A stretch of DNA of 64,000 nt from a virus (lineage: Duplodnaviria; Heunggongvirae; Uroviricota; Caudoviricetes): positions 1 through 64,000 of the IMG/VR virus record IMGVR_UViG_3300044845_000732. One strand, given 5' to 3'. The notes under the pieces are model-generated. The model was not told the DNA's origin. It did not search any database and saw nothing but the letters and a program-made list of their open reading frames with translations. This document shows, one piece after another, positions 35,018 through 59,657 of this stretch; within the stretch, counting starts at the first letter, position 1; every line of letters starts with the position of its first letter. Both the position numbers and the translations under genes were made by a program.

Positions 35018-35764
35018 TTATTTTCTTTTAAGAATTTCTTTTTCATAATAATCGTCAAATCCAACCATCATATCTGACATTGATTGATTTTTCTCCACAC
35101 CAACAATTTTATCAATTAGACCAAATTGTAATGCTTCATCAGAATTGAACCATTTATCATTTCTTGATGATTCTAACATTTCTTCAAATGTCTTACCACA
35201 ATTCTCTGCCAATATTTTGAATAATAAATAATTGTATTTTTCGGCCTCAAGTTGATTAATTCTTGTGTCTTGAACATTACCTTGTGTTCCGTGAGAAACC
35301 ATGTGTGTCATTACTTTAGAAAATATTAATGAAGACCTTTTACCTTTAGCTCCCGAAGAAAGTAATACGGAACCCATTGACGCACACATACCAATATTTG
35401 TGGTTGCTACATCGGCATTAATAAAGTTCATAGTGTCTCTAATACCTAATCCACTTAAAACACTCCCACCCGGAGTTTGTAGATATAAATTAATATCTTT
35501 TTTCTTATCCAAGTTGTCTAAGAAAATAAGTTGTGATTGGATGATATCACCCATTCTGTCATCAACCGGACCTGAAGCCCATAATATTCTATCCATCATT
35601 AAACGAGAGAAAATATCCATTTGGGTTACTCTCATTTCTCTTTCTTCCAAAATGTATGGAGTCATTGAATTTTGAATGTGGTTGTTGAAGTTGTGTAAAT
35701 CCAAAGATGGTTTACCTAAATGTTTTGTGTAATAACTTTGAAATTCTTGTCCTACGTTCATCAT
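35018..35764 (-). CDS. clpP: ClpP-family serine protease subunit
   Basis: ClpP core with catalytic Ser (GMCASMGS) and His (MTHMVSHG), plus an N-terminal extension. TAtcTTTG at 35780-35787. Confidence 0.72.
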   Translation of the reverse strand: MMNVGQEFQSYYTKHLGKPSLDLHNFNNHIQNSMTPYILEEREMRVTQMDIFSRLMMDRILWASGPVDDRMGDIIQSQLIFLDNLDKKKDINLYLQTPGGSVLSGLGIRDTMNFINADVATTNIGMCASMGSVLLSSGAKGKRSSLIFSKVMTHMVSHGTQGNVQDTRINQLEAEKYNYLLFKILAENCGKTFEEMLESSRNDKWFNSDEALQFGLIDKIVGVEKNQSMSDMMVGFDDYYEKEILKRK

Positions 35765-35799
35765 ATGTTTTAATTTTCAACAAAGATATACAAAAATAA

Positions 35800-36438
35800 T
35801 TAAAGTGCCAAAATATCATCAATAATTTCCTCACTTGATAAGTTGGAGTATAATCTCGGATGTTGATATGACCAAAATGTTTTCCAATTTCCGTACCAAA
35901 TAACCCCTTCTTGTCTTGGGTCAATTGTTCTCCAATCATTACTATTTTTAGGAAATCTACCGATATTATATGACTTATAATAATCTATACCATCTACTTG
36001 ATAGTATGATGGATACTTGATATTTATATCGTCAAAATTGGTATTTAAAAAAATTTTACATCCATGTATTTTTTGATATTCCTCCACCCGAGACACCCAC
36101 AATAGACATTCATCATAATTGTTAGTCTTCAAATTAAACAATACTTGTTTTCCGTAATCGTTAAAACGGTGAGTAAATATTTTTTTTAAACCAAAATTGG
36201 GGATATATTTTGAAACAGAGATTTCAAAATCAAAATAAAATTCGATTGGGATATGAAACTCACCACCATTACCGGATATTCTACGACCTTCAACGTAAAG
36301 AGATTGGTCATCATTTTTTAGGTATTCCCTCAACTCAACGTAATAAAGTTCATCGGGACCTGATATTCGTAAATAAGGTGATGGTGTAAAATTCATCACA
36401 ATTTTTTCTTCGTTAAGAGAAATAAACATAATCTTCAA
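35800..36438 (-). CDS. hypothetical protein
   Basis: 212-aa ORF in the same operon as the carbamoyltransferases. Confidence 0.5.
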   Translation of the reverse strand: MKIMFISLNEEKIVMNFTPSPYLRISGPDELYYVELREYLKNDDQSLYVEGRRISGNGGEFHIPIEFYFDFEISVSKYIPNFGLKKIFTHRFNDYGKQVLFNLKTNNYDECLLWVSRVEEYQKIHGCKIFLNTNFDDINIKYPSYYQVDGIDYYKSYNIGRFPKNSNDWRTIDPRQEGVIWYGNWKTFWSYQHPRLYSNLSSEEIIDDILAL

Positions 36439-38002
36439 TTATTAGTTTATCGATAACCCCAAGTTTTAATGACTCAAATGCTTGCTCAGGGTTTTCAATG
36501 ATTGGTTGATTGTGAGAATTAAATGAAGTGTTCAATAATAATGGTATTCCTGATAACATATAATATTCATTTAATATTTCCCAAAATTTAGGTGTTTTAG
36601 ACCTTTTAACTATTTGTGGTCTGGCCGTTTTATCTGACTTTTGTATAACTGCAGGTATCTTATCAATCCACTCATCTTTTGTATTGTAACATAATGTCAT
36701 AAACTCAGATGTGTATTTTGACTTTGATGGTGTAAAAATATTGTCAAAGGATTCTTCTAATATAATTGGGGCAAATGGCATTGTATCATATCGATTTAAT
36801 CTTTGATTTAGTAGTCTATGTGTTGAGATTTCAGTTGGTCTAACTAAAATACTTCGAGCCCCTAAAGACCTTGGACCAAATTCGGAACCATTTTGAAACC
36901 ATCCAACGATTCCTCCTTGATTGATATAATTTGCGATATCTTTCGGATTATATGGTTCTCTCTTAAAACTATAATCTTTTGAGATTTCCTGTATTTCATC
37001 ATTATTGTATGACTTTCCAAAATAAACATTAGTTAGTTCAATTGGTTCTGTAATCTCACCCAATTTTACTGCTTTATAGATACAAGCTCCTAATGACAAC
37101 CCTTCATCACCCATTGGTGGGTAAATATAAATTTCGTCAACCCATTCTAATTCGTTGAGTTTTTGATTTAATTTAACATTGGCAAATAGTCCTCCGGATA
37201 AGCATAATTGCTTATATTCAGGATATAAATTATGTAAGTCGTCAATAAATTTTAGGAATAGGTCTTCTGTTCGTTTTTGTAAATTAAATGAATAGATTTC
37301 CATTTTTTCTTGAGTATCGAAATATCCATTGAATTTCATCATGTCACCTAAAAACATAGTTTTACTTGATGACCCGGATGGGTAAAATCTAAAATCCTTA
37401 TAATTAATTACGGTGGACAACATATTATAAATTGTCTCATCGTAATGACCATTTGGACCCATACCCATTAATTTACCTTCATCTTTACACATTTTCCATA
37501 TTCCCTCACCATGTTCGTCATATCCTCTCATTGAGGATGTACTGAATCCCCAAACATGAGAAATACTTCCAAATGACGCCAATGGATGACTTTGGATTAA
37601 AGTCATTTTTCCATTATCACACAGATAAACTTTCATTACGGTACTTTCCCCTCCACCATCGTATGTGATAGTAATTGATTTACCTTTCATTCCACTGGTG
37701 TAGTAGGCACCATATGCGTGTGCGGTATGGTGACTAACTTTTTCATAATTATTGTTGCTGATTTTACGGGCAAATGCGTCCGGTGTTGGATTTGCAAAGA
37801 TTCGGTAATTGGCATCTGTTATTTTTAGACCTGTATATTTTTCCGCCTCAATACATGATAATTCACAATTAATATCGTAATTATCACCTGATTTTATTCG
37901 GGTTAGTCTCTCTTCCTCAATACAAAATGTTATTTTACCGTCTCTAATTAATGCAATAGATGGACTATGTGACCCGGTAAAGAATCCATAAATTGAACTC
38001 AT
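36413..38002 (-). CDS. carbamoyltransferase (NodU/CmcH family)
   Basis: N-terminal SIALIRDGKI..EERLTRIK; motif VSHHTAHAYGAYY; Kae1/HypF-like fold. Confidence 0.7.
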   Translation of the reverse strand: MSSIYGFFTGSHSPSIALIRDGKITFCIEEERLTRIKSGDNYDINCELSCIEAEKYTGLKITDANYRIFANPTPDAFARKISNNNYEKVSHHTAHAYGAYYTSGMKGKSITITYDGGGESTVMKVYLCDNGKMTLIQSHPLASFGSISHVWGFSTSSMRGYDEHGEGIWKMCKDEGKLMGMGPNGHYDETIYNMLSTVINYKDFRFYPSGSSSKTMFLGDMMKFNGYFDTQEKMEIYSFNLQKRTEDLFLKFIDDLHNLYPEYKQLCLSGGLFANVKLNQKLNELEWVDEIYIYPPMGDEGLSLGACIYKAVKLGEITEPIELTNVYFGKSYNNDEIQEISKDYSFKREPYNPKDIANYINQGGIVGWFQNGSEFGPRSLGARSILVRPTEISTHRLLNQRLNRYDTMPFAPIILEESFDNIFTPSKSKYTSEFMTLCYNTKDEWIDKIPAVIQKSDKTARPQIVKRSKTPKFWEILNEYYMLSGIPLLLNTSFNSHNQPIIENPEQAFESLKLGVIDKLIIEDYVYFS

Positions 38003-38005
38003 AAA

Positions 38006-59106: not shown

Positions 59107-59240
59107 AGTTTTCTAATTTTATTTTACAAAGGTCCATCAAATTTTGTTCTTATCCTAATTTTTAGACAAATTGTCAGTAAATATTTTTTTTACCTGACAT
59201 ATTGACATATTTATTCGAATGGTATATTATTTGAATACGA

Positions 59241-59248
59241 CAAAGGTA
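59241..59248 (-). promoter_or_regulatory. -7 box TAccTTTG upstream of clpC
   Basis: Part of the 15-mer ATACCTTTGTCGTAT, also found at 24754-24768. Confidence 0.35.
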
Positions 59249-59279
59249 TAAAATAAATCTGAATTAAAAAAATTAAATT

Positions 59280-59657
59280 ATGTTTGGAAACGAAAAAAAT
59301 TTTAATGACATTTTAAGAGCGTTCGATGATATGTTCGCTCAGTTCGATTCTCGTTTAGGAGAATGGAAAGCGCAAACTAAAGTATCTGAAGATGGTACAA
59401 TGAAAGTTACTACATATTATAGGAGTAATGAACCAAAAAAATCTAAAGAGAATACAGGTCTAAAACACCAATTAGAATTAGCTATTGAAAATGAAGACTT
59501 TGAAAAGGCGGTTGAGATTAGAGACCAAATTAAAAAATTGGAATCTAATCAAGAGGCAATCAATAAACTTGAAGAAGAATTAAAACAATCAATTAAAGAA
59601 CACAACTTTGAAAGGTCGATTGAAATTCGTGACGAGTTGAAAGGATTAAGAAAGTAA
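59280..59657 (+). CDS. small protein with two UVR-type motifs
   Basis: FEKAVEIRDQIKKLE and FERSIEIRDELKGLRK (UvrB/UvrC-like UVR motifs); divergent from clpC. Confidence 0.5.
   Translation: MFGNEKNFNDILRAFDDMFAQFDSRLGEWKAQTKVSEDGTMKVTTYYRSNEPKKSKENTGLKHQLELAIENEDFEKAVEIRDQIKKLESNQEAINKLEEELKQSIKEHNFERSIEIRDELKGLRK

Follow-up and report, generated by a model that had tools for sequence, protein, structure and literature searches.

The trans-translation systems described in bacteria such as E. coli and B. subtilis consist of transfer-messenger RNA (tmRNA) and SmpB, together with the proteases ClpXP (with SspB), ClpAP, Lon, and FtsH. Parts of such systems are also found in phages. Huge phages carry tmRNA together with SmpB (Al-Shayeb et al. 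2020, PMC7162821), a tmRNA is present in about 2% of genomes of cultured phages, and the idea that phage tagging might serve amino-acid recycling has already been voiced (both PMC9004378). Furthermore, the Bacillus megaphage G encodes a tmRNA, ClpP, and ClpX (PMC12484599). The subject here is a 64,000-nucleotide stretch of viral DNA (IMG/VR record IMGVR_UViG_3300044845_000732, positions 1 to 64,000; called the window below), which is part of a freshwater jumbo phage of roughly 310 kb. The window carries a tmRNA gene and, close to it, the gene for a ClpC-type unfoldase that lacks the N domain (N-less ClpC); a ClpP gene lies farther away. While a large phage clade diversified, the tmRNA and this ClpC remained neighbours, and a coupling of the tmRNA to the Clp genes is plausible.

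The phage locus resembles the bacterial systems in having a one-piece tmRNA with a G3.U pair and a T arm, a PK1-like pseudoknot that precedes the resume codon, an A at position -4 relative to that codon, a tag that ends in apolar residues plus Ala, and a ClpP with a catalytic triad in the same genome. However, the phage tag, which begins with Gly or Asp, is 21-22 encoded residues long, the adjoining ATPase is of the N-less ClpC type rather than ClpX, the genes are virus-borne, and SmpB, SspB, and ClpX are not in the window. With the huge phages of the published surveys (PMC7162821, PMC9004378), the phage shares a genome rich in tRNAs and translation-related genes and, in some relatives, an SmpB gene beside the tmRNA. 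These surveys, however, were based on ARAGORN, and no conserved adjacency to a Clp ATPase is described in them. Phage G likewise combines a tmRNA (whose tag, AKLNITNNELQVA, also ends in VA), ClpP, and a Clp ATPase in one genome, but its ClpX adjoins ClpP with the tmRNA elsewhere, whereas here the N-less ClpC adjoins the tmRNA and ClpP is distant; the host phylum also differs (PMC12484599). What is new, then, is the long tag found family-wide, the conserved adjacency of the tmRNA to an N-less ClpC, and the finding that most of the family escapes surveys based on ARAGORN.

A sequence-only reading of the window had placed an SsrA-like RNA on the minus strand, with a tRNA-like 3' end, an encoded CCA, and a complementary 5' end. 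This RNA is matched by RF00023 over the full length of the model (positions 1-374; 69.7 bits against a gathering score of 47, E 4.6e-25), and the tmRNAs of three relatives (L008, L061, and L078) score 65.7-83.9 bits with the same model. The ends can be read directly from the sequence: 5' GGGAGUG pairs with 3' CACUUCC, the G3.U pair included, and is followed by the discriminator A and the encoded CCA. Of the two programs proposed for checking the RNA, Infernal was thus positive; ARAGORN missed the RNA with default settings and, when run with -ps80, returned the identical coordinates with the wrong tag frame. Homologues gathered by nhmmer from related phage loci gave 57 distinct full-length sequences. 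The pairs G1-C, G2-C, and G3.U are invariant in all 57, the acceptor pairing itself having been a selection criterion when the sequences were trimmed, and double compensatory changes are present in acceptor pairs 4-7 and in the T stem. The CCA is encoded in 31 of the sequences, so about half of the family is without it. As for the architecture of pseudoknots and tag, the tag is borne out (see below), and an H-type pseudoknot resembling PK1 precedes the resume codon of 53 among the 57 tmRNAs, with a total of 11.5 bp vs 3.8 bp in shuffled sequences; the homologous pseudoknot of the window (AGUGA/UCACU plus GUUUCC/GGA-U-GAC with a bulge) was recognized by eye only. Downstream of the resume codon, in the region of PK2-PK4, the Rfam alignment has low posterior probabilities. 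With default settings, ARAGORN detects 12 of the 57 tmRNAs and misses the other 45, that of the window included; four of the 12 are given a wrong or shortened tag. Consequently, phage tmRNA censuses based on ARAGORN undercount this family.

The internal reading frame of the tmRNA ends in AVGFIRTEEVAVA followed by UAA, as had been noticed from the sequence. In the Rfam alignment, a GGA occupies the position of the E. coli resume codon GCA and follows UAGAC (UAGUC in E. coli). The same frame is found in 56 of the 57 distinct tmRNAs, where it starts at nucleotides 90-97 with a Gly codon (in a few cases Asp) and comprises 21 or 22 codons, and the A at -4 is invariant in 56 distinct relatives. Among 41 distinct tags of 21 codons, Gly11 is invariant and Gly1, Lys6, Leu12, and Ala21 are nearly so. 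The third codon position is the most variable (entropy 1.22, compared with 0.82 for the first and 0.63 for the second), and pN/pS is 0.60 in this frame vs 0.93 and 1.02 in the other two. In addition, ARAGORN agrees on the start and frame of the tag in eight of the 12 relatives that it detects. The RNA of the window is a functional-looking tmRNA whose tag is specific to this phage clade and selected at the protein level. The C-terminus of the tag is apolar (V-x-V-A), and inner positions are kept as well, with Lys or Asn at position 6 and Gly11-Leu12. Variants of the tag show no clean pattern with respect to ClpC linkage or to the presence of the UVR protein described below; Lys6 is found in most linked tags and Asn6 in some. 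The tmRNA tags of Bacteroidota have about 9-10 residues; a literature search for such a tag found nothing.

Two further features of the tmRNA loci of relatives may be recorded here. A group I intron (RF00028, 72-98 bits) interrupts the T-loop of the tmRNA in three of them (L033 12871-13087, L046 15130-15346, and L061 15113-15340); to our knowledge, an intron at this place has rarely been reported in bacteria. GOLLD RNA (RF02032, 275-306 bits) is found at three places (L078 16944-17351, L240 17535-17940, and L241 14064-14470). In one relative, it follows the tmRNA and SmpB at a distance of about 2.2 kb; in LR745206 and LR756502, huge phages of 634 kb and 642 kb, it is located upstream of the N-less ClpC, at 2-5.5 kb. 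There is none in the window.

The ATPase had been read as a Clp protein with two nucleotide-binding domains, an IGF loop for docking on ClpP, and no Clp_N domain, and each of these points has held. Pfam finds AAA, AAA_lid_9, AAA_2, and ClpB_D2-small in the 671-residue protein and no match to Clp_N; a separate ORF (open reading frame) for an N domain is not present upstream of the gene. The protein aligns in one stretch to residues 147-802 of S. aureus ClpC (739 bits) and, again in one stretch, to residues 145-800 of B. subtilis ClpC, whereas matches to ClpB break into two stretches. The protein thus has the short M domain of the ClpC type, which aligns to those of both bacterial enzymes free of gaps. 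The M domain includes a UVR motif, whose tip aromatic, Tyr299, is aligned to Phe436 of S. aureus ClpC; the corresponding Pfam UVR match (residues 280-312, 19.5 bits) lies just under the cut-off of 21.5. The Walker motifs and pore loops of both rings (GEPGCGKT/FIDEI with KYRG, and GSTGVGKT/FDEVEKA with GYVG) are kept in 86 of 86 relatives. The docking loop reads G-I-G-F at 534-537, with the IGF tripeptide at 535-537. It is G[IV]GF in all of the common variants listed for the 86 phage relatives and GVGF in the ClpCs of Bacteroidota. The closest bacterial homologues are almost all Bacteroidota ClpCs, with 55-60% identity and a median of 178 extra residues at the N-terminus.

When it is compared with the ClpC-ClpP system of Firmicutes, which works with MecA or McsA/McsB and for which the resting state of S. 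aureus ClpC has been solved (PDB 6em8/6em9), the phage enzyme has 55-60% identity over D1, the M domain, and D2 and shares the aromatic-tipped UVR motif of the M domain and the ClpP-docking loop. However, it has no N domain and consequently lacks the sites known to bind MecA, McsB, and phospho-arginine; furthermore, its UVR neighbour is without the zinc-finger cysteines of McsA. An N-less ClpC recurs in other huge phages (LR745206, 701 residues; LR756508, 657 residues). The enzyme without its N domain thus turns up repeatedly as a phage form of ClpC.

The ClpP homologue is likewise what it had been taken for. It scores 171.9 bits with Pfam CLP_protease PF00574 (cut-off 20.2) and 226.8, 199.2, and 180.9 bits with the NCBIfam ClpP models, all under the equivalog cut-offs of 249-361, which marks it as a divergent ClpP. 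Its best match in PDB is S. pneumoniae ClpP (E 7.7e-47), and it can be aligned with solved ClpPs from end to end, the N-terminal axial region included, with the Ser-His-Asp triad in register. The residues S97, H122, D171, G68, and M98 (E. coli numbering) are kept in 58 of 58 aligned ClpPs of the phage clade, that of the window among them; two other motifs have changed, HQP to HMV and E-R-D to R-N-D. A different identity, that of a ClpP-like S14 prohead (head-maturation) protease unrelated to ATP-dependent proteolysis, would agree with the best PHROG matches of the protein, which are head-maturation families (e.g., phrog_94, 116.6 bits). However, the true ClpP models are clearly ahead, and the ClpP-related head-maturation model NF045542 gives 61 bits with a cut-off of 120. 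Nor does the gene stand beside a portal or terminase gene, as would be expected of a prohead protease. Its neighbours are two large carbamoyltransferase genes and a heptosyltransferase-like gene, with no portal, scaffold, capsid, or terminase gene among them. The prohead candidate was rejected on these grounds and is very improbable; by its sequence, the protein is a true ClpP with an intact triad.

The association of ClpC with the tmRNA was followed in 86 loci retrieved via ClpC, of which 66 reach far enough and 20 are cut off. All 66 keep the same order: ClpC, then the M20-like peptidase and u407 genes on the opposite strand, then the tmRNA on the strand of ClpC. The tmRNA lies 2-6 kb from the N-less ClpC in every one of them. 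This order persists despite ClpC identities down to 66%, insertions, and turnover of the flanking genes. When sampling was started from the tmRNA instead (a DNA pattern scan, then nhmmer), 28 loci had the block and seven did not. Separate terminators were found for ClpC, the tmRNA, the pair of u407 and peptidase genes, and the UVR gene. In addition, SmpB is found within 1.5 kb of a tmRNA of the same family in at least 31 related loci. The features of the window are collected in Table 1.

Table 1. Features of the 64,000-nucleotide window discussed in the text.
Feature	Position	Strand	Description or basis
tmRNA (ssrA)	54539..54935	-	one-piece, 397 nt, encoded CCA; RF00023
Tag frame of tmRNA	54774..54839	-	21 codons, GNVLDKLSAVGFIRTEEVAVA; resume GGA 54839-54837, stop UAA 54776-54774
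Intrinsic terminator of tmRNA	54510..54534	-	directly 3' of CCA; 11-bp stem, then T run
ClpC-type double-ring AAA+ unfoldase	57091..59106	-	671 aa, without N domain, M-domain UVR motif, IGF loop; Pfam, alignment
Terminator of ClpC	57062-57089
ClpP proteolytic subunit	35018..35764	-	248 aa, N- and C-terminal extensions; Pfam, NCBIfam, PDB matches
UVR protein	59280..59657	+	125 aa; Pfam UVR, two stretches, E 7.2e-15; divergent from ClpC
M20-like (MH-clan) metallopeptidase	56166..57008	+	280 aa, catalytic domain only; phrog_4191 'peptidase', 112.9 bits
u407	55012..56148	+	conserved 378-aa protein of unknown function; ORF from first ATG begins 54925
u243	61480-62211	+	243 aa; weak nucleotidyltransferase domain (PF01909; phrog_36119)
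tRNA array	42605-47304	+	21 genes, 19 amino acids (Arg x2, Leu x2); between ClpP and tmRNA block
RNA-repair-type genes	21070-22176, 50343-50738, 51578-52144	-	T4 Rnl1-like RNA ligase (phrog_562, 229.5 bits); HAD domain of 'Swiss Army Knife' RNA repair proteins (HAD_SAK_2); faint PNKP-phosphatase-like match
627-aa protein	11232-13115	-	cohesin-like domain and type IX secretion C-terminal sorting domain (PF18962)
Glycan/protein-modification genes	35800-39670, 59686-60946, 25975-27228, 51115-51576	-	see text
Cell-wall/surface genes	6367-8200, 48667-49857, 22211-23038	-	see text
Cell-wall/surface gene	40715-41176	+	see text
Thymidylate synthase homologue	18252-19433	-	393 aa; phrog_160

Of the neighbours of ClpC, the small protein with two UVR motifs that had been noticed upstream, on the opposite strand, is present as described. 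It consists of an N-terminal helix, a beta-hairpin, a linker, and the two motifs (EDFEKAVEIRD and HNFERSIEIRD), both of which resemble the motif in the M domain of ClpC. McsA was considered as its identity and rejected: the match to the McsA profile is limited to the UVR segment (positions 137-174, 41.8 bits with a cut-off of 210), and the protein has no cysteine, so that the zinc-finger cysteines are absent. A gene for a guanidino kinase (McsB) was not found among the neighbouring ORFs scanned. The AlphaFold2 model of the UVR protein is of low confidence (pLDDT 66.9, pTM 0.32) and consequently too weak for a fold search. In chloroplasts, ClpF is a UVR-motif Clp adaptor that has an additional YccV-like domain and works with ClpS1; the phage protein resembles it as a small protein with UVR motifs that is proposed to act with a ClpC-type chaperone.

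The peptidase between ClpC and the tmRNA has weak similarity to Peptidase_M20, PepT (peptidase T), and PepD and is present in 80 of the 86 loci. Its motifs HTDTVH, GGDDKCG, SEETG, QFDAP, and YHT are invariant in the relatives and, to judge by PepT and the M42 enzymes rather than by an alignment, are putative metal-ligand motifs of the M20/M28/M42 clan. The gene is probably co-transcribed with u407, whose structural model is confident (pLDDT 86.6); no structural neighbour of that model was found.

These observations suggest a model in which the tmRNA would have a transcription unit to itself and would receive its alanine from the host alanyl-tRNA synthetase (AlaRS) through the G3.U pair. SmpB, which would here be that of the host unless a phage copy lies outside of the window, would bring it to stalled ribosomes. 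Resumption at the GGA codon would then append A-GNVLDKLSAVGFIRTEEVAVA (22 residues), freeing ribosomes during infection. The apolar V-x-V-A end and the conserved inner positions would mark the truncated products for degradation. The prime candidate for the protease is the phage N-less ClpC, its IGF loop docked on phage or host ClpP, with host ClpXP as an equally possible executor. In phages that have it, the two-UVR protein may attach by mimicry to the UVR-like M domain and so regulate or activate ClpC, and the M20-like peptidase may trim peptides. The sequence-only reading had called such a module possibly self-contained. This is contradicted by the missing SmpB (tblastn of the 64-kb window with the E. 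coli, Thermus, and phage SmpB proteins gave only noise) and by the dependence on host AlaRS; the window carries a translation-maintenance and proteolysis toolkit rather than a closed circuit. That the tmRNA, its tag, and the phage Clp pair are functionally coupled has about an even chance of being true.

Several points weigh against such coupling, and the main alternative is that the two parts have independent functions. In that case, the tmRNA would only recycle ribosomes, its tagged products going to host ClpXP, Lon, or FtsH; the Clp pair would act on other substrates, such as host proteins, defence proteins, or aggregated virion proteins, or in general amino-acid recycling; and their closeness would be a matter of conserved gene order. 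Indeed, in the bacteria studied, ClpXP rather than ClpCP is the main protease for SsrA-tagged proteins. ClpC is transcribed separately from the tmRNA, two genes of opposite strand and terminators lying between them. ClpP, which had been counted as a part of the module, is never found closer to ClpC than 10 kb. The window has 21 kb between ClpP and the block, the tRNA array included; at least six relatives have ClpP on the contig of the block, 18-30 kb away, and on one contig the distance is 72 kb or more. Its pocket for the IGF loop, moreover, retains Y62, F82, and L114, but other residues are unlike those of E. coli (Y60 to N, F112 to S). The two parts also occur apart. Seven related tmRNAs have no Clp gene in the 5-11 kb of available room, and nothing related to proteolysis is among their neighbours; five of these loci encode related but different tags (e.g., GNVYNNMEIAGLLATSNVAVA or GDVFANATVGHFVTEGATVAA), and one, L387, encodes the largely unrelated DEMSTMTFEDLMAFVGADYAVAA. 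Conversely, in more distant huge phages, no member of the block is found with the N-less ClpC; in LR745206, LR756502, and LR756508, which come from the GenBank accession series of the huge-phage study (PMC7162821), there is no tmRNA within 20 kb of it. Synteny with ClpC is just as strong for other neighbours, since u243, upstream of ClpC, is linked to it in 79 of 86 loci, and synteny within one clade is a single evolutionary event that may reflect merely a conserved core gene order. SmpB does lie near Clp genes in two other lineages, 1.3 kb from ClpP in L226/L227 and 2.3 kb from the N-less ClpC in L229, but among 42 loci, such proximity is about what chance would give and is not counted as support. 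The peptidase family is found in 342 GenBank phage records, including those of small phages of Klebsiella and Cellulophaga (43-73 kb), whose records were not searched for Clp or tmRNA genes, so its presence is no evidence for a module. Finally, the UVR gene lies divergently upstream of ClpC in 45 of 84 relatives and is absent within 10 kb in the other 39; thus, its product cannot be an obligatory adaptor, the role of adaptor having been suggested from the sequence. Against independent functions, the block from ClpC to the tmRNA has outlasted insertions and the turnover of its flanks in all loci of sufficient length, and a long tag with conserved inner positions suggests recognition by a dedicated partner. 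Independent functions are a substantial possibility, at somewhat less than even odds.

It is also conceivable that coupling goes further and that the tag, read by the N-less ClpC with the help of the UVR protein or u407 and fed to phage ClpP, forms a private channel beyond the host regulators. Such a channel is unlikely; if it existed, it could clear the products of host mRNAs broken during takeover and recycle their amino acids. In its strict, orthogonal form, host proteases would ignore the tag and only the phage ClpC would read it, via the UVR protein or u407. The clade-specific tag of 21-22 residues, a ClpC without the N domain that host adaptors use, UVR motifs like the tip of the ClpC M domain, and u407 as a conserved orphan fold beside the tmRNA all agree with this form. 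However, the UVR protein is missing in the 39 relatives mentioned above, tag variants do not follow its presence, and the V-x-V-A end is apolar like that of ordinary SsrA tags, so that host ClpX could well accept the phage tag. A strictly orthogonal degron is therefore regarded as decidedly improbable. At the other extreme, the tmRNA could be a dead passenger, a fragment of host ssrA picked up at an integration site, or the window could be bacterial rather than viral. Fragments of ssrA are indeed common in prophages (PMC9004378), and no capsid or terminase gene was identified inside the 64-kb window. However, the match to the tmRNA model is full length, and the RNA has at least 57 distinct homologues of full length, among which compensatory changes are seen and the tag frame is conserved. 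The close relatives of the window are IMG/VR viral contigs (up to 309-322 kb), several ORFs of the window match PHROG phage families and many match PHROG only, and none of the genes around the phage ClpC is present at the bacterial ClpC loci examined. Together, these two alternatives have next to no probability.

The window belongs to a large clade of freshwater jumbo phages, whose contigs reach about 320 kb. IMG/VR contains some 600 or more relatives, and 13 JGI metagenome contigs encode the identical ClpC protein. When GenBank phages were searched with the block by megablast, no match was found. The host is most likely a member of the Bacteroidota, as suggested by the type IX secretion sorting domain of the 627-residue protein, by the closest ClpCs, and by a Shine-Dalgarno-like motif upstream of only one of the 69 genes of the window. 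The search for a promoter motif shared by the tmRNA, ClpC, and ClpP was uninformative: the Bacteroidota -7 motif TAnnTTTG lies upstream of six of the 69 genes, with 3.3 expected, and GTTCTTTGAAAATAT, found upstream of the tmRNAs of relatives, had 17 matches vs 14.5 expected.

The tRNA array, of which ARAGORN with default settings detects 20 members and Rfam alone the tRNA at 45016-45088, together with the Rnl1-like ligase and the HAD domain of RNA repair proteins, places the tmRNA in a context of translation maintenance. The RNA-repair-type genes suggest that the phage defends itself against the cleavage of tRNA or mRNA by the host, and such cleavage would give the tmRNA work as well.

Other genes of the window are of different kinds. 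Genes for glycan or protein modification are abundant and include two tandem Nol-like carbamoyltransferases, the heptosyltransferase-like protein, a sulfotransferase, an Asp/Asn beta-hydroxylase, a family 17 glycosyltransferase, and a dTDP-sugar epimerase. The cell-wall or surface genes encode a chitinase-like or peptidoglycan-binding protein, a protein with a C-type lectin domain, a glucosaminidase, a weak match to M23 peptidases, and an SPFH/Band 7 protein. The thymidylate synthase homologue aligns to about 280 positions of the phrog_160 profile in several stretches, a patchy alignment that suggests an insertion of about 100 residues.

The pieces of this system are small and directly testable in vitro. 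If the coupling is true, widespread lake phages would bring into the cell a degron-writing RNA along with its possible reader, an unfoldase-protease. This would be a natural case of a virus rewiring protein quality control, and it would offer synthetic biology a ready-made orthogonal pair of degron and protease. Whether or not the coupling holds, these phages possess a large family of tmRNAs with an unusual tag of 21-22 residues, some members of which carry a group I intron in the T-loop or are accompanied by their own SmpB.

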